In this document: positions 1,013-21,528 of the stretch, piece after piece | How the letters are laid out: each line of letters starts with the position of its first letter | How positions within the stretch are numbered: position 1 is the stretch's first letter | From: Allocoleopsis sp. | GTDB taxonomy: Bacteria > Cyanobacteriota > Cyanobacteriia > Cyanobacteriales > Coleofasciculaceae | DNA: 22,858 nt | Assembly (NCBI RefSeq): GCF_036703385.1 | Contig: NZ_DATNPA010000225.1 | Coordinates: forward strand, 1 to 22,858 | Direction of reading: 5' to 3' | Notes under the pieces: model-generated | The model's input: the letters and a program-made list of their open reading frames with translations, nothing else | What the model was told of the DNA's origin: nothing | Database searches by the model: none | Made by a program: the position numbers and the translations under genes

Positions 1013-1594
1013 CTATGACTCAAATTCAACACTTTCATAGATATCTGCTAAACGAATTTCAAAGGGTATCGATGAGAGTGAAATATACGATTCTGTATCG
1101 TCATATTCAGTAAAGAGCCATTTGTGGGAGTCTGTTCTGGAGTATTGCTCAACATGAGCAGTATATTGATCGATCAATAAATATTCTTGAAATGTAGGAA
1201 TGGTACGATATGCTGAAAAATTTTCATCCCTATCGTAGCTTTTGGTTGATTTTGAAAGCACTTCGGCGATCATTACCGGGTTAGTAATCGTATCAGTTCG
1301 TCCCTGTTGTCGTTCAAGTGGGCGGGGGACAACCATGACATCCGGGTAGGTGTAAAGCGTGCGCTCGGGAATCCAAAGCCGTTGATCAGCTACAAAAATA
1401 CTGTACGGTTTCCCTTTCAAACTGACTCTTAAAGCAGCATTGAGAATACTGGCAATTTCATTATGTTCGGGAGTGCCGCCAGTCATAGGGATGATTTCTG
1501 CATTGATATACTCATGCCGAATATCTGAATTTACCTCAAAATCGAGATACTCTTCAGGTGTACAGATTTTCTTTGCTTCAGCCTGCATAATCAT
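1013..1594 (-). CDS. Uma2 family endonuclease, tandem paralog of 337..909
   Basis: 193 aa with the same motif set (PMTGGTPEHNEI, DQRLWIPE, YTYPDVMVVP, IPTFQEYLLIDQY). About 60-65% identical to the neighbour by eye. Confidence 0.85.
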   Translation of the reverse strand: MIMQAEAKKICTPEEYLDFEVNSDIRHEYINAEIIPMTGGTPEHNEIASILNAALRVSLKGKPYSIFVADQRLWIPERTLYTYPDVMVVPRPLERQQGRTDTITNPVMIAEVLSKSTKSYDRDENFSAYRTIPTFQEYLLIDQYTAHVEQYSRTDSHKWLFTEYDDTESYISLSSIPFEIRLADIYESVEFES

Positions 1595-1944
1595 GTTAGT
1601 TTTACCCCCAAGGCTTCAAGTTGCTGGTTTATCCAAGTGGTCGCTTTCTCTTCATCCGTCTCGATCGCCCGTTTCACCTCCCGCCCAAAATTCACCCCAT
1701 ACTCAACCTGAATGCGACTCAGGGGATAGTGCAAGCGATCGCTCAAAACCCGTAAATATAGTTGCCGGATTGCCTCCTCTGGCGTTAGCTTAATCGCTTT
1801 TTGACGCACCAAACAAACCGTATAAGGAACCTCACCGTTTTTGGTCACCTTGAGAGTAATCGTCTGCTCTAACTGCTCAATTTCAGCGATCGTAAACGGC
1901 GACAGCTTGTAATTTGAGTCCTTGAGGATATCGGCTAATTTCAT
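1591..1944 (-). CDS. Small HsdR-N-like protein (type I restriction enzyme R N-terminal-domain family), probably truncated. Its stop overlaps the start of Uma2 by 4 bp.
   Basis: The N-terminal LKDSNYKLSPFTIAEIEQLE...CLVRQKAIKLTPEEAIRQLYL...YPLSRIQVEYGVNFGRE resembles my recollection of the HsdR_N-type small proteins common in cyanobacteria, which are usually longer. Start and stop codons overlap (ATGA) with the downstream gene. Confidence 0.45.
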   Translation of the reverse strand: MKLADILKDSNYKLSPFTIAEIEQLEQTITLKVTKNGEVPYTVCLVRQKAIKLTPEEAIRQLYLRVLSDRLHYPLSRIQVEYGVNFGREVKRAIETDEEKATTWINQQLEALGVKLT

Positions 1945-1973: not shown

Positions 1974-3191
1974 CTAAAGTCCAAAATCTTGAATCACTTC
2001 AACTAACTGGTCAATCTCTTCCCGTAGCGTGAAGTAGTGAATACAGGCGCGGACGCAGTCTGGGTCGAGGATGGTTCGGAGCATGAACCCCTTTTGTTCG
2101 AGAAACTGAACTAATTGCTTGTGAGAACGTCCATTCGTCAAGACAAACGAAACCAAACCCGCTTGTGGTGGTGAGGTACATAAGCAACGGACAGACTCTA
2201 ACTGAGATAAACGTTGCCAAAGATATTCACTACCTTGACAAATTTGCTTGTAGCGTTCTTCAGCTGTACCCCATTGCTGATGAGTGGCGATCGCAGCACG
2301 CAATCCTGCATACAAGGGGTAAGCTGATGTTGCTACCTCAAACCGCTGTCCATTCGGTTTCCAACCTAGGGGTTTACCGGTTTCATCACTGACGATTCCC
2401 CGCCAACCGATGAAGGTCGGGTTAATACTGTCTAAGGCATCGGGTCGGATGTAAAGACCACCTAGACCTTCTGGCCCACACCACCACTTGTGACCTGTAA
2501 ACGCATAAAAGTCTGCCCCCAATTCAGTCAAATTCAACGGCAGACAACCCACAGACTGCGCCGCATCGACCAAAACTCGGATGATATGAGAACCTGTAGA
2601 ATAATTTCGGCAGGCATCAACGATGTCTCTAAGGGGTAACACTTGACCCGTATTCCACAGCAGATGACTCAGCACCACCAATCGAGTCCGGGGTCGTAGG
2701 TGCTGTGCAATAACGGCTGTTGGGTCTCCCTGATTGAGGGTTTCCAGGATGGGACAGGTGGAGATTTCGATATTAAACCGACGAGCGAGTTCTCGTGCGA
2801 TCGCGATAACACCTGGATGTTCACAATCTGTCAGAAGTAAGTGGTCGCCCGCTTGCCAATCAATCCCCCACATAGGGATATTGCAACCGACTGTCACATC
2901 TTCCGTGAGTGTGATCGATTCTACAGGTGCACCTAATTCTGATGCGATCGCCACTCTCGTTTTCTTGCTTTCTTCCATAATCCAGCTATTCACGCCAGCA
3001 CAAAATGGGCCATGCAACTGGATATATTCATAAGCTTTTTGGATAGTGTCCAGCGAAGCTTGAGGCAGAGTGCCTTGGCCCCCAAAGTTGAAATACGCTT
3101 TATTGGCTAAAGCGGGAAACTGCTGTCGATGGTGTTCAAGCTGCGTTGGTGCAGGGTAGATGCCAGTCATAGAACGAGTCACAAAGAACAA
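1974..3191 (-). CDS. aminotransferase class V-fold PLP-dependent enzyme (cysteine-desulfurase-like fold, apparently lacking the catalytic Cys loop)
   Basis: A PLP-lysine motif (FTGHKWWCGPEGLGGLYIR) and a C-terminal CVRACIHYFTLREEIDQLV resembling the SufS/CsdA C-terminus. No GHHCA-type active-site cysteine segment is seen. The true start may instead be the internal Met at 3170. Confidence 0.8.
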   Translation of the reverse strand: MFFVTRSMTGIYPAPTQLEHHRQQFPALANKAYFNFGGQGTLPQASLDTIQKAYEYIQLHGPFCAGVNSWIMEESKKTRVAIASELGAPVESITLTEDVTVGCNIPMWGIDWQAGDHLLLTDCEHPGVIAIARELARRFNIEISTCPILETLNQGDPTAVIAQHLRPRTRLVVLSHLLWNTGQVLPLRDIVDACRNYSTGSHIIRVLVDAAQSVGCLPLNLTELGADFYAFTGHKWWCGPEGLGGLYIRPDALDSINPTFIGWRGIVSDETGKPLGWKPNGQRFEVATSAYPLYAGLRAAIATHQQWGTAEERYKQICQGSEYLWQRLSQLESVRCLCTSPPQAGLVSFVLTNGRSHKQLVQFLEQKGFMLRTILDPDCVRACIHYFTLREEIDQLVEVIQDFGL

Positions 3192-4506: not shown

Positions 4507-6273
4507 TTATCGAGGCCACCACGTCGGATTGTTTTTCATAAAGTCAATCAAAGCATTGTACCTGGGTGAACCTTTCTCATTGAGAGAGTGCAATGCTCCC
4601 CAACTGCCCCATTTGCTTGGCTGTCCCACATCCACAAAGTGGTTAAACAGAGTGCCACCATTTTTCTTCCAGCCATTTAAGAGCATGGTGTAGATGTTGT
4701 ACATCTCTGGGTGCTTATTAATGGCAATCAGAAATTCGGTTAGTTTCTCATTATCCTGTCCTCCTCCCATCCCGACAATATGACTTCCTCCTTCATAAGC
4801 AACGAGTTGTAATCCTTTTTCTTTAGCCACCTTAGAGTGGTATTCAAACAAACTGATCGTATCGGGTATTGTATCGCCGCCTTGGAGTAAGGTACCCTCC
4901 CTAAGCTGTTTAAAGGCTTTACCAAACCCGCCATCGGGGTCAGAACGCCAGTTAAGTACGGTATCTAGATTCTCAGGTTGCCCCAAGCTTCCTGAGAAGT
5001 AACCAGTAATTGCTAATCCATCAATACCGTGTTTGTAAGGAGGTTCATTACCTTCAGCAACCCACTTCGGTGCATTCAAAACCGACTCTTCTAATCCTTT
5101 CCATGCGACCTGAGTACCAATCACACAAAATACGCGATTGGAAGCTTCCTTAAACACCTCTTTCTTCCAGATATCGCACACTTGTGCGGCTCTCATGCCA
5201 TTGTATTGCATCCAAGCATCCCCAAGATCTTGTCCCCATCTGGCTTTACCCTGCTCACTGGCATAATGAGATTGTTGAAATTGCCAGTTCCACACTTCGT
5301 TGGAATACTCTACATAAGCCTTCAATCCTGGATCGAGATGCTTTTTCACATACTCTGCAAAATTTTTGATGTAATCATCCGTTGCCATGTGGGGCATATT
5401 AAACCAGGCATCAGCTTTGATTCGATTGGCTAAAGCCACCATGACTTCTATGGGAGCACCGTTGCTTTGCCAGGTGTAATCCGTTAGCTTAGGTCGATCT
5501 TCCCAGTTCTTCTGAGTCGAGTTATTCGTTCCCATCCAATCCATGAAGCGCACAGCTTGAAAACCTTTTATTTTTTCAAGCCAGACAGGATTGAAGATTT
5601 GGGTAGCAAAAGTTTTCTCGTATTGCTCCGGTACAACTCGGATGTTCCGAATATAATTACCTGTTTTATTGGGGTCTGTTTCAGTAATATGAATAGAAAT
5701 TCCTGCGCCTCCTCCGGCCACGTTAATGACATCTCTACCCGGCTTGGATTCCTCTTCAATCTTCTTAGATTCAAACTCGTAGATCAGCTTTCCTTCTCCG
5801 TCGTACAGAACGACATACCGACCTGTAGGAAATGCTCCTGGAATGTCTCTGTAGAGTAAGGTACCAACGCGAGTGTAGCTGGCTCCGCTTCCAGGCTGCG
5901 GCAAAGACTTCACCCAACCCTGCTCATCTAAATCAAGTTTGACTTCAGCATTGCTGTCTCCTTTACCCTCACAAGATGGGTCTCCATAAGCACAGCTTGT
6001 GTACCAAGGTCTTGCTGTTCGGAAAGCGTCTAAAAAAGGGAGTTGGGTTGAATAGTCAGCCAACCCATTTAGCCCCATGCCTAATGAGCGATTAGTCATC
6101 AGGTTCTTGGGTAGGGTAGCAGCTTGAGTGGATGTTACAGAGGGAGGGGGATTGAGTGCATTGGATTCAGGCTTGACTTGTGCCAGCTTACTCCAGATGG
6201 GAGGACCTGCCAGTGCTAGAAACAGGGCAATACCAAACAACACCAAAAGTTTGGAAACCTTTTTGTAAGTCAT
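4507..6273 (-). CDS. secreted protein, putative TIM-barrel glycoside hydrolase (clan GH-A-like; family unassigned)
   Basis: An N-terminal hydrophobic signal/anchor (LLVLFGIALFLALAGPPIWS), a Pro/Ser/Thr linker, and candidate acid/base (YSNEVWNW) and nucleophile (VAYEGGSH) motifs in the order and spacing typical of clan GH-A enzymes. Confidence 0.6.
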   Translation of the reverse strand: MTYKKVSKLLVLFGIALFLALAGPPIWSKLAQVKPESNALNPPPSVTSTQAATLPKNLMTNRSLGMGLNGLADYSTQLPFLDAFRTARPWYTSCAYGDPSCEGKGDSNAEVKLDLDEQGWVKSLPQPGSGASYTRVGTLLYRDIPGAFPTGRYVVLYDGEGKLIYEFESKKIEEESKPGRDVINVAGGGAGISIHITETDPNKTGNYIRNIRVVPEQYEKTFATQIFNPVWLEKIKGFQAVRFMDWMGTNNSTQKNWEDRPKLTDYTWQSNGAPIEVMVALANRIKADAWFNMPHMATDDYIKNFAEYVKKHLDPGLKAYVEYSNEVWNWQFQQSHYASEQGKARWGQDLGDAWMQYNGMRAAQVCDIWKKEVFKEASNRVFCVIGTQVAWKGLEESVLNAPKWVAEGNEPPYKHGIDGLAITGYFSGSLGQPENLDTVLNWRSDPDGGFGKAFKQLREGTLLQGGDTIPDTISLFEYHSKVAKEKGLQLVAYEGGSHIVGMGGGQDNEKLTEFLIAINKHPEMYNIYTMLLNGWKKNGGTLFNHFVDVGQPSKWGSWGALHSLNEKGSPRYNALIDFMKNNPTWWPR

Positions 6274-6289
6274 AAGAAAACTGTCAATG

Positions 6290-6560
6290 AGCTCCTACAA
6301 TACTAAGAATTGGGGACTAGAGACTGGGAACTGGAAACGATAGATATTTATCCTTGTGTGGTGTTTCCAGTTCATAGCCGTCTAACGGGTCAAGCGGCAG
6401 ACCTCTCCTCTATTGTGTCCTTAGCTTTCTGGCAACCGCCAGAGGCTCCTTTTGGAGAAGTATAGGAGATGAACTACCTCGGACTCCGTAAGAACTACGT
6501 CCGAGGTTTCTGTCGCTTCAGCGAGGAAATTTGCTTCCCCAATCCCGTATGACGAGGGAT
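6290..6560 (-). ncRNA. putative omega-RNA (reRNA) scaffold derived from the right end of the tnpB element, overlapping the tnpB 3' end
   Basis: A hairpin-rich region: CTGGAAAC(24 nt)GTTTCCAG at 6332..6371 and CCTCGGAC(14 nt)GTCCGAGG at 6476..6505 spanning the tnpB stop. This matches the known organisation in which the TnpB guide RNA is encoded at the 3' end of tnpB plus the right end of the element. Confidence 0.35.
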
Positions 6561-7748
6561 GGAAGTAGGGATTTCCTCTCCACGATTGAGGACGTTAGTC
6601 CCTAACGCCCATGACAGCATAACCATTGCTGCGGCGATATCCCTGTCATAAGTTGCACCGCATTCTGAGCAATGATGAACACGCTCAGATAGGTCTTTTT
6701 TCCGTTGATGACCACAGTCAGGACAGGTTTGAGAAGGCTTTACCTTTTTGGTAGGAACGAGAACCATAAATCCACCCGCTTCTTGCAGTTTGTACTCAAT
6801 AGCCTTGGTCAGATTTCCAATCCCTACATCCAGCATTGAACGGTTCAATCCCGTTTTCTGAGCCTTCCTTTTACTACCCTTTTTCGCCTTCTTGGTCATT
6901 CCTTTTAGATTCAGCTCTTCAGTTGCTATCAGGCTATTACCGCTTACTAACTGGCTCGCAACCTTATGCGTCCAATCTTGTCTTTGATTGGTCACTTTGC
7001 GCTGAAGTCTAGAGACTTTCTTAGACGCTTTCTTCCATCGTTTTGATGCCTTAATCTTCCTCTTGAAATTAGGCGCTTTTTTGCGGCGCTTTTGTTTAGA
7101 TGCAATCTTTATTTTTTCGGCTGATTGGCGCTGAAACCGAGGGTTATCTATCACCGTGCCGTCACTCATAGCGGCGGCGTGGTATGTACCAAAATCAATG
7201 CCAATTGCTCCATCACCCGTTTCTCTAACTGGAGTGCATTCCACTGTAATGGACGCATACCAACAACCGTTGCGATAGACAATCGTGCAAGTTGTAGGCT
7301 TCCCCCAAGTTCTAGCTTTTCCTCTCATCCGGATACTGACTTTGAGGTCGGTCAATTCAAGGCAGCCATTATCGCCAGTTGTATGCACTTTCCATCCTGA
7401 CGTAGCAGGATAAGTCCATCCTGAATAATGCCTGATTGACTTGAATTTAGGTTTTCCTCTCAGTCCTTTGAAGAAGGATTGGTAAGCTAGGTCAACTCGC
7501 TTGAGAGTAGCTTGTAATGTCTGTGAGCCTAGGTGTTTATACTCCGTCCATACTTCTTTGAACGCTGGCAACGAATTTTGTTGTTCATAGTACGAAACAC
7601 TATGACCATATCGCTCATATTGAACTCTACGATTAGCTATTGCTGCATTGTAAAGCTCTTTATGCATCCGACGCGCCCAACTCAATTTATGAGCCGCTTT
7701 CGGTTTAGGATATAAGCGAAATGTTACTCGCCTCGTTACCAACTTCAA
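6495..7748 (-). CDS. tnpB: TnpB (IS200/IS605-family OrfB RNA-guided endonuclease), catalytic residues intact
   Basis: 417 aa with RuvC-I (IGIDFG), RuvC-II (ATEELNLKGM), a zinc finger (CPDCG...CSECG) and RuvC-III (YDRDIAAAMV), plus lysine-rich inserts. A strong SD (AAGGAGG) lies upstream of the ATG on the minus strand. Confidence 0.9.
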   Translation of the reverse strand: MKLVTRRVTFRLYPKPKAAHKLSWARRMHKELYNAAIANRRVQYERYGHSVSYYEQQNSLPAFKEVWTEYKHLGSQTLQATLKRVDLAYQSFFKGLRGKPKFKSIRHYSGWTYPATSGWKVHTTGDNGCLELTDLKVSIRMRGKARTWGKPTTCTIVYRNGCWYASITVECTPVRETGDGAIGIDFGTYHAAAMSDGTVIDNPRFQRQSAEKIKIASKQKRRKKAPNFKRKIKASKRWKKASKKVSRLQRKVTNQRQDWTHKVASQLVSGNSLIATEELNLKGMTKKAKKGSKRKAQKTGLNRSMLDVGIGNLTKAIEYKLQEAGGFMVLVPTKKVKPSQTCPDCGHQRKKDLSERVHHCSECGATYDRDIAAAMVMLSWALGTNVLNRGEEIPTSIPRHTGLGKQISSLKRQKPRT

Positions 7749-16025: not shown

Positions 16026-17099
16026 TTGCTTAAGTCCACTCCACTGCTTCAAAACACCTCAGCCGCTGGCATGGTCAAGCTTTGGGCACAGCGCTATGTC
16101 CCCGACTTATCAATTCTGTCTGCAAATCAAGGTCAATTCAATGTCTCTGAGGTGATTCAAGCAGCATCCCTAGAGGGGCGAACTCAAACCGTTGGCAAGC
16201 TTCAGCGTCTACTCCAAACCAGTTGCGAATTAGCGGGTATCAAAACGAATATTCTCTTTTCTTACATTCCCAATGTCGTCAATCTATCGGAGGCTGGAAA
16301 CATTGCCCGGTCAGCCGTGCGAGTTTATGAGAAGGTACTGGACATTTATCAGCAGCAGTCGTCTCCCATCGTTGCACAAGAGGCCCAACTCCAGGCTGGG
16401 GAAGCCCTGCCTCAATGGGTGAGACAAGCGATCGAGCTACCCGATATTCAACAGTTGGCTCTTAAGCTTGAACCTGAATTACTCCAACTTCAGGAACAAC
16501 ATCTATTGACTCAGGATCAGCGCAGTCGTGGCTTTCTCTCCACCCACTTTCATTTGAGTACGAAACAAATTCTCAATCGACTCACACTACCTGAGCAAGT
16601 CTTGCTTAGCCCCTACTTCAAGTTTATCGAAGAGCAAGTTTGCATCCCCTGGCAGCGAGTATGCGCCGCTGCGGCGCAGCATCCAGGGGACTCCCCGACT
16701 CTGGCACTCGTGGAGCAACTACTACCACAAGCAGAAGAAATCGCGTTAGCCGTCTACCACCGCTGTGTGGAACAGTATCCCCATTATCAAAGCTATCGGG
16801 GAAACCTCAGCGAATCGGGGGTTGCTGCCTCTACCCTCCGAGACTTGAATATGTTCCAAGGCTATCTCTGGCTGTGTGTACTGGAAAAGAGCCTGGATGC
16901 AGTGGAGCAGGAATTGCTGCCTTTGTGCCAGATGGTTTTTCCTAGTGTGGAAGTCAAAGGAGAATTCGTCGAATCGATATTACAGTTGTTATTCGAGACG
17001 ATTTTAACCCGTGTGGATTCTGAACAAAAATTTTGGGTAAAGTCTTATACTTTGGCGATACAGCAGATCTTTACTAATTTTGAGGCCAACCTGAAATAG
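16026..17099 (+). CDS. Hypothetical protein (357 aa). The start is uncertain: TTG at 16026, or ATG at about 16071.
   Basis: A long ORF on the same strand as its neighbours. There is weak, unverified resemblance to phycobiliprotein/globin-like helices (for example TLRDLNMFQGYLWLCV versus the CxRDxxYYLRxxxYC region) without the bilin-binding Cys. Confidence 0.6.
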   Translation: MLKSTPLLQNTSAAGMVKLWAQRYVPDLSILSANQGQFNVSEVIQAASLEGRTQTVGKLQRLLQTSCELAGIKTNILFSYIPNVVNLSEAGNIARSAVRVYEKVLDIYQQQSSPIVAQEAQLQAGEALPQWVRQAIELPDIQQLALKLEPELLQLQEQHLLTQDQRSRGFLSTHFHLSTKQILNRLTLPEQVLLSPYFKFIEEQVCIPWQRVCAAAAQHPGDSPTLALVEQLLPQAEEIALAVYHRCVEQYPHYQSYRGNLSESGVAASTLRDLNMFQGYLWLCVLEKSLDAVEQELLPLCQMVFPSVEVKGEFVESILQLLFETILTRVDSEQKFWVKSYTLAIQQIFTNFEANLK

Positions 17100-17104
17100 A
17101 CCTT

Positions 17105-17159
17105 TCCGGAAATTAGGGCGAAACTCTTGCTCGGTCTGCATTGAATCTTAATTTCCGGA
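17105..17159. terminator. long-loop stem-loop (TCCGGAAATTA / TAATTTCCGGA, 11-bp stem) directly after the stop of the 16026..17099 gene
   Basis: An inverted repeat seen in the sequence, located in the 203-bp gap before the HypX-like gene. Confidence 0.35.
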
Positions 17160-17302
17160 TAAGTCTATTGTGTTTTTTTGCGGAGGCTTACTGATGAGTC
17201 TTTGTCTGTCAGTAAAAATTTTATGACCACTTTGCAAGTCAATAGAGTGAGAAAAAATTGCTTTTATAGTTAACCAAAGTACCTAACAGAAGGAGGATAA
17301 AG

Positions 17303-19084
17303 ATGCGAATCTTATTGCTATCGAACGCTTACAATAGTTTGACGCAACGCATCCATGTAGAGCTTGCTTATCAGGGTCACAACGTTTCTGTTGAACTCAC
17401 TTTGAATACTCAAGTTATGGCTGAAGCGGTTGAGCTATACCAGCCCAATTTGATTATTGCCTCTTTCGTAAAAATGGCAATCCCTGAAGTAATTTGGCGT
17501 CGCTATATCTGTATCATTATCCATCCTGGAATTAAAGGCGATCGAGGCCCATCTTCTCTAGATTGGGCTATCCTGACTGATGCAGAAGAGTGGGGTGTAA
17601 CGGCATTACAAGCAACGGGAGAAATGGATGCGGGTGATATCTGGTCATCCGTTAATTTCAAGATGCCATCCCGGAGTAAAAGTTCTGTGTATAGAACTGA
17701 AGTGGCTGAGGCCGCAATCCAGGCTATTTTAGAAACAATTGAACGTTTTGAAAGCGGACATTTTATTCCTGAGCCGTTGGATTATAGCCGAGAGGATGTT
17801 AAGGGTTGTCTACGTCCATACATGAAACAAGAGGTGAGAGGCATTGATTGGGCTTCAGACTCAGCCTCTACAATTGTTAAAAAAATTCGTGCTGCTGATA
17901 GTCAACCCGGTGTACTCGATACAATCGACGGAGAAGCTTATTACCTATATGGCGCACATCAAGAAGATACGTTGAAAGGAACTCCCGGTGAAATTATTGC
18001 TCAACAACATGGTGCGATTTGTCGGGCAACAGTCGATGGTGCTGTTTGGATATCCCATCTTAAACAGAAAAAACGAGGAGAGCAATCGTTTTTCAAATTG
18101 CCCGCAGCGATGGTGTTAAGTGAGTCTTTAAAAGATATTCCCGAATTAACTCGGTCTCTAAAACTTTCTTCCACTTGCAAAACTTATAAGGAAATATGGT
18201 ACGAAGAGAAGAACGATGTAGGATATCTACATTTTGACTTCTATAATGGTGCCATGAGTGCTGACCAGTGTAATCGCTTGAAGACAGCTTTTCTTAATGT
18301 CTGCACTCATCCAACCAAAGTGATTGTTTTAATGGGAGGACAAGATTTTTGGTCAAATGGAATTCATTTGAATATGATTGAAGCGTCAGAAAATCCTGCT
18401 GATGAATCTTGGCGTAATATCAATGCTATGAATGACCTTGTTCTGTCAATTTTGACTGCAACAACCCATTTAGTCCTTGCTGCAATGCAAGGAAATGCAG
18501 CAGCCGGGGGCGTTATGTTAGCTTTAGCGGCGGATCAAGTTTATGCCCGCCGTGGTATTGTTTTGAATCCCCACTACAAACGGATGGGATTGTACGGTTC
18601 GGAGTATTGGACTTATTCACTCCCTAAGCGTGTCGGTCATAAAAAAGCGCTGGAACTGACCAATAATTGCCTACCGATGAGTACAAAAGTTGCTCAAGAA
18701 ATAGGACTCATTGATGATTGCTTTGGTCAGAGTATCGTTAGTTTTCGGCAGCAGATTGAGGCGATCGCCCAAGGTATGGCTCAAAGTCCAGATTACGAGC
18801 ATAGATTGGCTTTGAAGAGAGAGATGCGACTCACAGATGAGCGCTGTAAACCTCTCGAAGATTATAGAAAAGAAGAATTGGAGCAAATGAAACTAAATTT
18901 CTATAGCTCCGAGCAAAGTTATCATGTTGCTCGTCGTAATTTTGTTTATAAAATTACTCCTTCAGAGACTCCCCTACACTTAGCAAAGCATCGCCAATTT
19001 AGTCACCCATCAGAAAAGTGCGCGGTCGTTTTGCCGAATGCAAAAACTTCGCAGAAGAGTACACTAGGCTTTCTTCATAGGTGA
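17303..19084 (+). CDS. hypX: HypX/HoxX-like protein: N-terminal N10-formyl-THF formyltransferase-like domain fused to a C-terminal enoyl-CoA hydratase (crotonase)-like domain
   Basis: 593 aa. The N-terminus MRILLLSNAYNSLTQRIHVELAYQGHNVSVE...IIIHPGIKGDRGPSSLDWAIL matches the formyltransferase fold (HPG...DRG). The C-terminus VIVLMGGQDFWSNGIHLNMI...AAMQGNAAAGGVMLALAADQVYA...LNPHYKRMGLYGSEYWTYSLP matches the crotonase fold. Length and domain order are those of HypX. A strong SD (AAGGAGG) lies 8 nt upstream. Confidence 0.75.
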   Translation: MRILLLSNAYNSLTQRIHVELAYQGHNVSVELTLNTQVMAEAVELYQPNLIIASFVKMAIPEVIWRRYICIIIHPGIKGDRGPSSLDWAILTDAEEWGVTALQATGEMDAGDIWSSVNFKMPSRSKSSVYRTEVAEAAIQAILETIERFESGHFIPEPLDYSREDVKGCLRPYMKQEVRGIDWASDSASTIVKKIRAADSQPGVLDTIDGEAYYLYGAHQEDTLKGTPGEIIAQQHGAICRATVDGAVWISHLKQKKRGEQSFFKLPAAMVLSESLKDIPELTRSLKLSSTCKTYKEIWYEEKNDVGYLHFDFYNGAMSADQCNRLKTAFLNVCTHPTKVIVLMGGQDFWSNGIHLNMIEASENPADESWRNINAMNDLVLSILTATTHLVLAAMQGNAAAGGVMLALAADQVYARRGIVLNPHYKRMGLYGSEYWTYSLPKRVGHKKALELTNNCLPMSTKVAQEIGLIDDCFGQSIVSFRQQIEAIAQGMAQSPDYEHRLALKREMRLTDERCKPLEDYRKEELEQMKLNFYSSEQSYHVARRNFVYKITPSETPLHLAKHRQFSHPSEKCAVVLPNAKTSQKSTLGFLHR

Positions 19085-19149
19085 GCATAAATATCAGATT
19101 TTGTTGCTTGGAATCGGGTCAGTTTTTTCTGCTCAATCCCTAGCAATTT

Positions 19150-21528
19150 TTATTGCACCCGTTGTAATGTTGCTCGAGTTGGGTCGAGAATTTTCTGACC
19201 GAGACCAGGGAATTTAACAGCAATACTGATTTTATTCCCCGAACCAAAAATGTGGGTGACTTCGCCTGTCCCAAAGGTATCGTGAATTAGCAACTCCCCA
19301 ACTCTCCAATCCTGGGACTGTTTGGTTGAGCGTTTGGTTTGGGTTGAAGGTTGCTCTTGAGCCGGTTGAAGGTTGTTTTCTGAACCTTCAACCTTCAACT
19401 TTCCAACTTTCAACTCCTTAACCTTCAATTTATGGGTGCTGCTGACTAAGTCTTTAGGTAATTCCTCAAGAAACTGCGATCGCACAGCGGGTTCTCGATT
19501 CCCATACAGGCGTCTCTCACGCGCATGGGAGAGAAATAGCTGTTCCTGAGCACGGGTAATTCCTACATAACAAAGACGGCGTTCTTCTTCCAAAGAAGCC
19601 GGGTCATCCATTGAGCGATAGTTGGGAAATAGCCCCTGTTCTAACCCGACCAAAAAGACAACCGGAAACTCCAATCCTTTTGCCGAGTGCAGCGTCATCA
19701 AAGATACAGTTTTTTGTCCATCTTTTAAGTCATCCAAGTCAGAAGCAAGGGAAGCATTCGCCAAGAAACCTTCTAAACTTGTGTCTTCGTTTTCTTCCTG
19801 AAATTGGAGGACAGCGTTATAAAGTTCAGAGATGTTTTCCAACCGATTTTCGGCTTCATCAGTCCCTTGTTTGGTCAAGTCTTCAATATAACCCGACTCT
19901 TCCATAATTCCCTTGACAATTTCAGCCGCTGTAAGATTCTCGATTTGCTGCTGCCACCGCTGAATAATTTCGGCAAAGCTGTTGACTCCCTTGGCTGAAC
20001 GTCCTGCGAGAGTACTCACTGAAGTTTGGTCGCTGAGAATTTCCCACAGCGATATATTTAATTCTTGAGCAGCCCCCAGCAGTCGGTCAATAGTGGCTTG
20101 ACCGATGCCGCGTCGAGGGGTGTTAATGATGCGTAGGAGGCTGACGGTATCATCTGGATTTGCGATCGCTCTTAAATAAGCCAGAGAATCTTTAATTTCT
20201 TTGCGATCGTAGAACTTCAGCCCACCCACAATAACATAAGGAACTTTACCCCGCAGGGCATCCTCAAACGGGCGAGATTGGGCATTCGTGCGGTAAAGGA
20301 TCGCAAAACTTCCCCAGTCGAGTTCTGGGTACTGTTGCTCCATTCGCCGGATTTGATTGATTACAAAGTGCGCTTCTTCTACCTCATCATCTGCTTTGTG
20401 AACATAAATCTGTTCCCCTAACCCGCGTGTAGGTCTTAGTACTTTATCGATACGCTGGGTATTATTTTCAATCAGGTAATTAGCCGCTTGGAGAATGTTT
20501 TCCCTAGAGCGATAATTTTCCTCCAATTTCACCATCGTGCGGGTATCTTCATCGGGTAATCCATCTCCAAAATCTTGCTGAAATTCCAATAATATGGTAA
20601 AATCAGCCATCCTAAATGAATAGATGGATTGGTCGGCGTCACCCACTACAAAAATTGAGCGATCTTTCCAATTCCATTCACTTTTCTGTGTCTCTCCATT
20701 CGTGCTTAATAGGCGAATTAAGTCATATTGAATCCGGTTCGTGTCCTGGTATTCATCCACCAAAATATGACGGAATTGCTGATGCCAATAGCCCAAGACG
20801 GTTTCATTCTGTTGAAATAGTTTAACTGGGACTAAAATCAAGTCATCAAAGTCGAGGGCGTTGTTGCTAGCTAGCTGGTTTTGGTAATGGCTATAGACTT
20901 CGGCAATCACTCGCCCCTTATAACCAGTTTGCTCTTTCTCAACATCTTGGGGAGATAAGCCCTGATTTTTGGCATTACTGATGGCGTAGCGGACTTTCCG
21001 GGGGTCAAATTTTTTGTCATCCAAGTTTAATTGTTTGGTGACGATGTTTTTGACGAGACTTTGGGCATCGGATTCATCAAAGATGGAAAAGTTCCGGTTC
21101 CACTGATGTTTTTGTTCGTCTTGATATTTATTGACATCGAGGCGGAGAATCCGAGCAAAGAGGCTGTGGAAGGTACCAATCCACAACGGTTTGATATATT
21201 TTTTGTAAACGCGCGATCGCAACTGGGTTTGTTCTTCCTCTGACAGTAATTCCAGTCGTTGCCCGTGTTTTGAAAGCGCCATCTGCTGAGCAAATATCGT
21301 CTCAATGCGGGTTTTCATCTCCCGTGCCGCTTTGTTGGTAAAAGTTACCGCCAGGATGTTTTCGGGATTGACCTTGTGAGTGAGAATGAGATTGGCGATT
21401 CGATAGGTTAGTGCCCTCGTCTTGCCGGAACCTGCGCCAGCAACCACCAGCAAGGGGCCACAGAAATGTTCGACGGCACGACGTTGAGAGGGGTTGAGGT
21501 GGCTGAGGAAGTCAGTGGTTTGAGTCAT
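19150..21528 (-). CDS. pcrA: ATP-dependent DNA helicase PcrA/UvrD family (SF1), with a C-terminal Tudor-like domain
   Basis: Walker A (VVAGAGSGKTRALTYRIA), the TFTNKAAREM motif, DEYQDTN and other SF1 motifs. A C-terminal WRVGELLIHDTFGTGEV region is typical of the PcrA C-terminal domain. Confidence 0.9.
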   Translation of the reverse strand: MTQTTDFLSHLNPSQRRAVEHFCGPLLVVAGAGSGKTRALTYRIANLILTHKVNPENILAVTFTNKAAREMKTRIETIFAQQMALSKHGQRLELLSEEEQTQLRSRVYKKYIKPLWIGTFHSLFARILRLDVNKYQDEQKHQWNRNFSIFDESDAQSLVKNIVTKQLNLDDKKFDPRKVRYAISNAKNQGLSPQDVEKEQTGYKGRVIAEVYSHYQNQLASNNALDFDDLILVPVKLFQQNETVLGYWHQQFRHILVDEYQDTNRIQYDLIRLLSTNGETQKSEWNWKDRSIFVVGDADQSIYSFRMADFTILLEFQQDFGDGLPDEDTRTMVKLEENYRSRENILQAANYLIENNTQRIDKVLRPTRGLGEQIYVHKADDEVEEAHFVINQIRRMEQQYPELDWGSFAILYRTNAQSRPFEDALRGKVPYVIVGGLKFYDRKEIKDSLAYLRAIANPDDTVSLLRIINTPRRGIGQATIDRLLGAAQELNISLWEILSDQTSVSTLAGRSAKGVNSFAEIIQRWQQQIENLTAAEIVKGIMEESGYIEDLTKQGTDEAENRLENISELYNAVLQFQEENEDTSLEGFLANASLASDLDDLKDGQKTVSLMTLHSAKGLEFPVVFLVGLEQGLFPNYRSMDDPASLEEERRLCYVGITRAQEQLFLSHARERRLYGNREPAVRSQFLEELPKDLVSSTHKLKVKELKVGKLKVEGSENNLQPAQEQPSTQTKRSTKQSQDWRVGELLIHDTFGTGEVTHIFGSGNKISIAVKFPGLGQKILDPTRATLQRVQ
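19341..19432. repeat. GTTGAAGGTTG motif copies (19341, 19365), an 11-bp-stem hairpin (19365..19393), and about 6 degenerate tandem CCTTCAA heptamers (19384..19430), all inside the pcrA linker coding region
   Basis: Read directly: GGTTGAAGGTT-GTTTTCTG-AACCTTCAACC, then ccttcaa ccttcaa ctttccaa ctttcaa ctcctta accttcaa. Encodes LKVKELKVGKLKVEGSENNLQPAQEQPSTQ on the minus strand. Confidence 0.7.

Follow-up and report, generated by a model that had tools for sequence, protein, structure and literature searches.

hypX outside a hydrogenase gene context in Allocoleopsis sp. and in a HypX subfamily of several phyla

HypX is the aerobic carbon monoxide (CO) synthase of the folate one-carbon pool; it releases free CO and is needed only under oxic conditions (PMC12134894). 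In HypX of Aquifex aeolicus, His74-Asp80-Asp109 forms the triad that moves the formyl group from N10-formyl-tetrahydrofolate (N10-formyl-THF) to bound coenzyme A (CoA) (Muraki et al. 2019, PMC6802093). Tyr416 and Glu426 are needed for the decarbonylation of formyl-CoA, and mutation of the Ralstonia equivalents gave a HypX-minus phenotype (PMC6802093). HypX is uncommon in cyanobacteria: Synechocystis (PMC10073562) and Lyngbya aestuarii BL J (PMC3858816) are without it, and about nine cyanobacterial species genomes were found among the best 80 matches of a species-genome HypX scan. In this study, the open reading frame (ORF) at 17303-19084 of a 22,858-nucleotide contig of Allocoleopsis sp. (NZ_DATNPA010000225.1, referred to as the window) was analysed as a hypX gene, together with its neighbours and the gene context of its homologues. 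An identical protein is already in NCBI under the name 'hydrogenase maturation protein [Allocoleopsis sp.]', relatives are named HypX/HoxX by JGI, and HypX of the cyanobacterium Acaryochloris marina MBIC11017 was placed in a HypX tree in 2010 (PMC2974642). This source name and the top matches of the protein, which were cyanobacterial, agree with a cyanobacterial origin. The gene is therefore not new and is an annotated member of a known family.

The ORF had 593 uninterrupted codons in the mechanical ORF list of the window, the opposite strand was closed by many stops, and a ribosome-binding site, AGGAGG, lay 6 nt 5' of the ATG. The Pfam matches from the N- to the C-terminus were Formyl_trans_N (weak, 24.5 bits), Formyl_trans_C and ECH_1. 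The phmmer search against PDB sequences gave a single full-length match, A. aeolicus HypX ('HoxX', 6J0P), with an E value of 1.1e-169, which is far beyond chance. Residues 1-566 of the window protein were aligned to residues 21-578 of the 6J0P chain in one continuous alignment, with 48% identity over 557 columns and only four gaps of 1-3 residues each. Since a model specific to HypX is lacking in both Pfam and NCBIfam, the assignment rests on this PDB match and on the conserved residues. The score against the Fmt model TIGR00460 was 54 bits with a curated cut-off of 201.5, and the best score against the enoyl-CoA hydratase/isomerase equivalogs of NCBIfam (cut-offs 250-350) was 58.6 bits for PaaG with a cut-off of 345. 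Membership of Fmt and of these equivalogs was rejected, because scores of 54-59 bits stand against cut-offs of 200-345.

A sequence-only reading of the window had proposed a 593-aa HypX homologue with a formyltransferase-like N-terminal and a crotonase-like C-terminal domain, citing the motifs IIHPGIKGDRGPSSLDWAIL and MGGQDFWSNGIHL...GNAAAGGVMLALAADQVY, which the translation carries. The proposal was borne out by the 6J0P match, the residues and the order of the Pfam domains, and the length of the chain lies within the HypX range of about 560-600 aa. The reading had also named two results that would speak against it. The first, a different fusion family, did not agree with the low Fmt and enoyl-CoA hydratase scores, and the second, a loss of key catalytic residues, was not found in the alignment with Aquifex HypX. 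By every sequence criterion at hand the window protein is HypX. The identity of the enzyme is secure; the destination of its product is not.

All five proposed catalytic residues were kept in the window HypX: H74, D80, D109, Y425 and E434. In A. aeolicus numbering (H74, D80, D109, Y416 and E426) they were invariant across an alignment of 150 homologues covering both clades of the family, and the cavity residue A392, also kept in the window HypX, was invariant in both clades. The CoA contacts S12, Q15, R131, S194, Q195 and N306 of A. aeolicus corresponded to S12, Q15, R131, S200, Q201 and N315; the seventh contact, R542, was replaced by K550, so that six of the seven were identical. The differences from Aquifex at two positions, I419M and R542K, were the norm in nearly all of the 150 homologues. 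These residues suggest that the window HypX is catalytically competent and would produce CO.

It is very improbable that the window protein has another chemistry, such as that of a formyl-CoA or acyl-CoA enzyme without CO release, or that it donates CO to a metal centre other than that of a hydrogenase. The lack of hydrogenase neighbours on the contig would fit such a role, as would some variation between the clades at positions 194/195, which contact the CoA 3'-phosphate. Against it stand the invariance of the five catalytic residues and A392 in both clades, the full-length 48% identity to the crystallised enzyme with its four short gaps, and the fusion of some homologues to FolD, which indicates the same N10-formyl-THF substrate. 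The suggestion of the sequence-only reading that a formyl-CoA enzyme had been recruited to a new role found no support, as every catalytic residue was invariant in the 150 homologues.

The gene context of HypX was compared in 166 loci from species genomes and metagenomes, and in loci fetched by exact protein look-up. The samples were the best 80 matches per collection, obtained via exact peptide seeds, and were not exhaustive. ORFs were called mechanically and neighbours were labelled by BLAST and Pfam; individual loci are designated by L numbers. A neighbour-joining tree with a midpoint root was built from 150 distinct HypX sequences, Ralstonia and Rhizobium not being among them, and the bootstrap was run on a 69-taxon subset. 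The family split into two clades with a bootstrap of 100/100, and the cyanobacterial clade was also supported by 100/100. Of 149 related loci, 69 belonged to clade A and 80 to clade B. Clade A contained the Aquifex enzyme, Nitrosomonas and other Betaproteobacteria, and Chromatiales; a hyp or hydrogenase gene lay within four genes of HypX in 55/69 loci, typically in the order hypC-hypD-hypE-hypX, and a gene for an MHYT protein or a methyl-accepting chemotaxis protein (MCP) in 0/69. Clade B contained Cyanobacteria, Methylococcales, Bacillota and Chloroflexia, with hyp or hydrogenase genes in 1/80 loci and MHYT or MCP genes in 26/80. Because 38 of these 80 loci were too short to judge, the MHYT/MCP figure for clade B is better given as 26/42 informative loci. 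The sole hydrogenase signal of clade B was weak: a 147-aa ORF (L153, 3035-3478) whose similarity to a [NiFe] large subunit covers only the ~80 C-terminal residues of the latter. This ORF may be a relic or encode a small accessory protein.

The lack of hydrogenase neighbours is typical of the clade-B subfamily. The placement of the window gene, called unusual in the sequence-only reading, was indeed unusual in comparison with proteobacterial hyp operons; within its own subfamily it was not, in view of the single signal among the 80 clade-B loci and of none in the cyanobacterial ones.

With moderate probability, the main role of the window HypX is CO supply for the maturation of a Hox or Hup [NiFe]-hydrogenase encoded elsewhere, possibly with sensor coupling. 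The N-terminal domain would transfer the formyl group of N10-formyl-THF to tightly bound CoA via H74-D80-D109, formyl-CoA would swing into the crotonase-like C-terminal domain, and Y425 and E434 would decarbonylate it with release of CO. This chemistry has been demonstrated for the Aquifex and Ralstonia enzymes and is predicted for the window protein from its sequence. The CO would presumably become the ligand of the NiFe(CN)2CO cofactor when the hydrogenase matures in the presence of O2. The hypX gene would be an accessory, independently transcribed unit with its own leader, whose gain or loss took place between the genes for a phycobiliprotein-like protein and UvrD; the MCP-MHYT gene pair upstream is a separate conserved module that has only recently come close to hypX in the window.

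The distant-hydrogenase reading is the best one because relatives of the source organism have Hox hydrogenases: Microcoleus sp. PCC 7113 and PCC 7420, related strains, are listed with Hox in the literature. A. marina has both HoxH and HypX (PMC2974642), and cyanobacterial hyp genes are often scattered (PMC5186783). An O2-compatible CO route has an obvious use for an oxygenic phototroph. Folate and one-carbon genes of clade B point to the same N10-formyl-THF chemistry. In Chloroflexia, HypX was fused C-terminally to FolD (L023, 10001-12706; L034, 1691-4228; protein P0100), the methylene-THF dehydrogenase/cyclohydrolase, which makes the HypX substrate N10-formyl-THF. A gene for an HPPK-PabB fusion (folate) was located directly upstream of HypX in L171 (3907-5937), and the glycine-cleavage genes GcvH/GcvP were located near HypX in L001 (4178-7722), both without an MHYT neighbour.

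Several observations weigh against CO supply for a distant hydrogenase. No hydrogenase or Hyp family was matched by any of the 15 larger ORFs around hypX that were scanned in the 22.8-kb contig, and the hyp/hox/hup adjacency that is typical of HypX, and not strictly defining, was absent from the window. No such gene was found within 10 kb of any cyanobacterial HypX examined either, so the hydrogenase target is assumed and not seen. In most cyanobacteria the maturation of Hox and Hup does without HypX, which is absent from Synechocystis for instance (PMC10073562), so the need for HypX is not obvious. Clade B is set apart, with 100% bootstrap, from the clade of the characterised enzyme. The outputs of the signalling neighbours in clade B (cyclic di-GMP (c-di-GMP), chemotaxis and single-domain receivers) are behavioural and not transcriptional, which a pure maturation role leaves unexplained.

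The MHYT domain was predicted in 2001 as a copper-based sensor of O2, CO or NO, and in 2024 the MHYT domain of CoxC was found to respond to CO in a copper-dependent manner with O2 as antagonist (PMC11347149). In the loci compared here, MHYT genes occurred only at ranks 1-4 from HypX, with 22/515 genes at ranks 1-2 and 0/759 at ranks 5-12 (p ~2e-9 by Fisher test, which ignores phylogenetic non-independence). Among 140 neighbours at most two genes away from a clade-B HypX, with redundancy removed at 60% identity, the leading Pfam domains were Response_reg, HATPase_c, TPR_12, MHYT, GerE, HisKA, PAS and MCPsignal. MHYT was thus fourth, and no hydrogenase family was among the top 25. All HypX-linked MHYT domains kept the three Met-His-Tyr motifs, and hypCDE occurred together with MHYT in no locus.

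At least five MHYT-HypX architectures were present across three phyla. One of them was MCP-MHYT-x-HypX, as in the window. A divergent stand-alone MHYT gene lay beside HypX in L003/L172, L007/L173, L087 and L170, where the pair was kept while the outer flanks changed. An MHYT-PAS-GAF-kinase gene was directly upstream of HypX in L011, L088 and L009 (the last cut by the contig end). The order HypX-receiver-MHYT-PAS-kinase-receiver-hybrid kinase was found in eleven genome-collection loci annotated as Methylococcales and in similar metagenome loci, and HypX-MHYT-PAS-GGDEF-EAL in two Bacillaceae. A multi-pass membrane MCP abutted HypX in three Bacillota loci and one metagenome locus, and HypX was the last gene of a CheA/CheW/MCP operon in L048. 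The repeated placement of HypX beside MHYT-type sensors across the subfamily suggests that its output is functionally coupled to CO/O2 sensing. This association across phyla is apparently undescribed; the literature search gave no paper mentioning both MHYT and HypX, nor HypX in a sensory context.

Two sensor types were observed besides these. An ETR1_N-PAS-GGDEF-EAL protein, ETR1_N being a copper-dependent ethylene-binding domain, was encoded at a distance of four to five genes from the divergent pair of MHYT and HypX (L003, 3310-5871; L172, 1-1869), as a second copper-based small-molecule sensor near this pair. The 865-aa L003 protein and a protein of L051 had been labelled 'MHYT-GGDEF-EAL'; the label arose from GGDEF-EAL similarity and was retracted, as neither matches MHYT. 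The Bacillota MCPs abutting HypX (L018, 367-1890; L020, 8445-9977; L025, 8450-9973) had an unannotated N-terminal domain of ~180 aa, in which 4-5 membrane segments were predicted and His/Met/Tyr motifs (GDGMVEYHFSIFMV, FAIHHI and MVLIHA) were conserved, and which gave no Pfam match at E<=1. It may be a domain of a new type that senses a gas or a metal within the membrane.

The gene context admits a second explanation, which is rather unlikely. In the sensor-linked subfamily, HypX could be a dedicated CO synthase whose product would be bound by membrane chemoreceptors and by copper-MHYT receptors that stand alone or are coupled to a kinase or to GGDEF-EAL, and CO would lead to changes in motility, c-di-GMP or phosphorelays independently of a hydrogenase or in addition to it. 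In the window, the receiver would be the MCP-MHYT pair, the MHYT gene lying two genes upstream of hypX. The clustering of MHYT close to HypX, its rank among the neighbour domains, its intact motifs, the number of architectures, the constancy of the divergent pair, the MCP and chemotaxis operon arrangements, and the absence of loci with both hypCDE and MHYT all argue for CO signalling, as does the copper-dependent, O2-antagonised CO sensing of CoxC (PMC11347149). The outputs of the linked sensors (c-di-GMP turnover, chemotaxis-type outputs and single-domain receivers, with no recognisable DNA-binding domain) also fit signalling better than inherited regulation or expression control by O2/CO. 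Several observations argue against it. About half of the cyanobacterial HypX loci had no MHYT neighbour, and stand-alone MHYT proteins were common in cyanobacteria, in species outside the HypX matches. The Methylococcales loci may represent a single evolutionary event. In the window the link is weak: the MCP-MHYT pair was kept without HypX in L167-L169, the two were unlinked in one genome (L169, L171), and hypX, which has a leader of its own, is a recent insertion/deletion. Signalling by CO from HypX is hypothetical. As a general proposal, it is doubtful, though conceivable, that the sensor-linked HypX subfamily of Cyanobacteria, Methylococcales, Bacillota and possibly Chloroflexia makes up the synthase half of a bacterial signalling system based on endogenous CO, in which folate-derived CO is read by copper-MHYT proteins and chemoreceptors and directed to motility, c-di-GMP and phosphorelays, partly or wholly independent of hydrogenase.

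Since hypX already borders hoxA/hoxJ in the classical clusters L059 and L076, the adjacency of sensors may be inherited hydrogenase regulation, which is a further point against CO signalling. In these clusters the order was HypE-HypX-response regulator-PAS kinase-regulatory hydrogenase. In a further reading, the MHYT sensors would replace the HoxJ/HoxA/HoxBC of proteobacteria and gauge O2, or CO as feedback; they would switch on hypX and hydrogenase maturation only when oxygen requires the HypX route, and HypX would serve hydrogenase only. Such purely regulatory coupling has a low probability. The canonical clusters are consistent with it, as are the restriction of the HypX requirement to oxic conditions (PMC12134894), the response of MHYT to both CO and O2 (PMC11347149), and the kinase-type MHYT proteins directly up- or downstream of HypX. 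It agrees poorly with the linked modules, in which no DNA-binding output domain was found and single-domain receivers, a 285-aa receiver-like protein, GGDEF-EAL proteins and MCPs were seen instead. MHYT proteins of the stand-alone type lack any output domain, and the partner of the window MHYT protein is a chemoreceptor and no transcription factor.

That hypX forms a unit of its own, as the distant-hydrogenase reading supposes, was examined by comparison with related loci. The window was collinear with L167 (77-84% nucleotide identity) from the vault-protein gene via the MCP, MHYT and phycobiliprotein-like genes to 17085, and collinearity resumed at 19156 in uvrD. In L167 the 2.07-kb hypX stretch was replaced by 915 unrelated bases holding a 209-aa minus-strand ORF; the MHYT protein of L167 was 88% identical to that of the window. 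In L174 (isolate Microcoleus sp. FACHB-53) the phycobiliprotein-like gene (90% identical) was followed 26 bp on by uvrD with no hypX between, and no MCP-MHYT pair was found upstream of it. L175, with a HypX 89% identical, had the same gene order as the window. The GC content of the hypX segment was 0.41-0.44 and that of the sensory genes upstream 0.46-0.51, the segment being slightly AT-richer. The adjacency of hypX to the MCP-MHYT pair is recent in the window, and the gene was gained or lost between the phycobiliprotein-like gene and uvrD.

The gap 5' of hypX was 203 bp. Its last ~45 nt before the start (TAGTTAACCA ... ACCTAACAG ... AGGAGG; also designated by the conserved TAGTTAAC) aligned with the hypX leaders of L087, L170, L008, L007 and L003, in which the neighbour genes differ. 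Because the leader is conserved despite differing neighbours, hypX appears to move and to be expressed as its own unit, and the leader may act as a promoter or operator. Consensus promoter and terminator counts at 10500-19400 were no higher than in shuffles, and Rfam gave no match on the whole window. A conserved operon of MCP, MHYT, phycobiliprotein-like gene and HypX was rejected. The closest MHYT relatives (L167, L168 and L169) keep only the MCP-MHYT pair, without HypX; the phycobiliprotein-like gene abuts uvrD in L174; and in assembly GCA_037025365.1 the MCP-MHYT pair is on one contig (L169) and HypX on another (L171).

The three genes upstream of hypX, which are co-directional with it, are listed with the other features in Table 1. 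The MHYT protein matched Pfam PF03707 with 161.6 bits (E 4e-48, three repeats) and had ~6 hydrophobic or transmembrane segments, with the motifs WSMHFIAM, LMHYTGMAAM and SMHYTGMAAA intact. The link of this gene to hypX within the window is uncertain. The MCP and MHYT genes form a two-gene module (12143-15936; also in L167, L168 and L169) in which the MHYT protein has no output domain, and the pair may be a gas-responsive taxis receptor pair. In the GAF domain of the chemoreceptor, HH was seen by eye where bilin-binding cyanobacteriochromes presumably have the canonical CH. The AlphaFold2 model of the 357-aa protein was all-helical with a pLDDT of 81, and its best fold matches were allophycocyanin and smURFP. 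The protein is one of a large unannotated family, of which filamentous cyanobacteria have several members per genome and in which His176 and Cys213 are invariant. From its predicted globin-type phycobiliprotein fold it could be a bilin- or haem-binding protein. It was considered as a HypX partner and rejected: it is present without HypX, other HypX loci searched have no homologue, and only L175 repeats the window order.

Table 1. Features of the hypX region in the window
Feature	Position	Strand	Basis and remarks
dCache_3-HAMP-GAF-MCPsignal chemoreceptor, 984 aa	12143..15097	+	Pfam; paired with MHYT gene
Stand-alone MHYT membrane protein, 247 aa	15193..15936	+	Pfam MHYT, transmembrane scan, motif alignment; two genes upstream of hypX
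Phycobiliprotein-fold protein, 357 aa	16026..17099	+	Weak Pfam Phycobilisome, AlphaFold2 model; directly upstream of hypX, left border of insertion/deletion
Insertion/deletion segment carrying hypX	17086..19155	.	Comparison with L167, L174, L175
Conserved 5' leader of hypX	17267..17296	+	TAGTTAACCA 17267-17276, ACCTAACAG 17281-17289, AGGAGG ribosome-binding site 17291-17296
hypX ORF	17303..19084	+	593 aa, ATG start; predicted formyltransferase (N10-formyl-THF:CoA) domain, then crotonase-like formyl-CoA decarbonylase domain
Formyltransferase-like N-terminal domain	17405..18073	+	Pfam Formyl_trans_N residues 35-145, Formyl_trans_C residues 174-257; contains H74-D80-D109
Crotonase/ECH_1-like C-terminal domain	18248..18880	+	Residues 316-526; contains Y425, E434 (= Y416, E426 of A. 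aeolicus)
uvrD/pcrA helicase gene	19150..21528	-	Right border of insertion/deletion, convergent with hypX

Other features were observed in the rest of the window. The minus strand at 7846-10524 encodes a protein of 892 aa homologous to the major vault protein of eukaryotes. It matches several Vault repeat families and the MVP shoulder domain at very strong Pfam scores and is 88% conserved in L167. Vault proteins are unusual in bacteria. A TnpB-like protein (OrfB_IS605 and Cas12f-like TNB domain) is encoded at 6495-7748 (-) with no adjoining TnpA gene, and a 588-aa protein with an N-terminal hydrophobic segment, no Pfam match and 72% conservation in L168 is encoded at 4507-6273 (-). The 1.6 kb at 10525-12142 has no long ORF, and ~2.9 kb of L167 (a PIN-domain gene, small ORFs and a TPM_phosphatase gene) is missing there; a 100-aa ORF at 10973-11275 (-) overlaps the piece 11063-11253, which aligns to the start of the L167 TPM_phosphatase gene. 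Two tandem Uma2-family endonuclease genes lie at 337-909 and 1013-1594 (-), followed by an HSDR_N-like fragment at 1591-1944 (-) and a class-V aminotransferase gene at 1974-3191 (-). In Scytonema L005, HSDR_N and aminotransferase-V genes are directly downstream of HypX, and the aminotransferases of L005 and the window are only 28% identical.

As a gene call, the result changes nothing, since HypX is already so labelled in the databases. An oxygenic phototroph bearing HypX may assemble a [NiFe]-hydrogenase in air. This bears on the running of O2-tolerant hydrogenases in cyanobacteria, for which HypX at present has to be imported (PMC10073562). Half of the sampled HypX family lies outside a hyp operon and repeatedly beside MHYT sensors, an association worth a targeted test. 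To our knowledge, HypX is the only folate-dependent bacterial CO synthase, and no membrane domain other than MHYT has been shown to sense CO. If functional, the HypX-MHYT link would be a testable handle on self-made CO as a bacterial signal and on the physiological ligand of MHYT.

Methionyl-tRNA formyltransferase, the FDH hydrolase domain and enoyl-CoA hydratases have folds in common with the halves of the window HypX. These proteins are single-domain and the window HypX scores far under the cut-offs, so it is no member of the Fmt or enoyl-CoA hydratase families. A. aeolicus HypX (6J0P and others; PMC6802093) is like the window HypX in two-domain architecture, length, catalytic residues and most CoA contacts. 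It falls in clade A, whereas the window HypX falls in clade B with its gene outside a hyp operon. Compared with the A. aeolicus enzyme, the window HypX has a tail of ~27 residues and 9 additional ones in the loops that join its domains. The hypX genes of Ralstonia eutropha and Rhizobium leguminosarum are taken here to close the hypA-F operon and to border hoxA. The window hypX, unlike these, is solitary with its own leader. Their products (HoxX; PMC12134894) belong to the same family with the same predicted reaction, and Y439/E449 of Ralstonia correspond to Y425/E434 of the window HypX.

CoxC of Afipia carboxidovorans, an MHYT-LytTR CO-responsive repressor (PMC11347149), has an MHYT transmembrane domain with three Met-His-Tyr motifs, like the window MHYT protein. 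By description, on which this comparison is based, CoxC carries a fused DNA-binding domain and regulates genes for CO oxidation, whereas the window protein lacks an output domain and has a chemoreceptor as its partner; the copper-dependent CO/O2 response, shown for CoxC only, is putative for it. A described cyanobacterial case is HypX of A. marina MBIC11017 (YP_001520946, with its locus on plasmid pREB1), which is 61% identical to the window HypX and groups with it in the cyanobacterial clade (bootstrap 100). Genes for a WD40 protein and a Mo-nitro_C protein lie beside it, with no MHYT or MCP nearby, unlike the window. The A. marina gene is likewise located far from hydrogenase genes, and its host has Hox.

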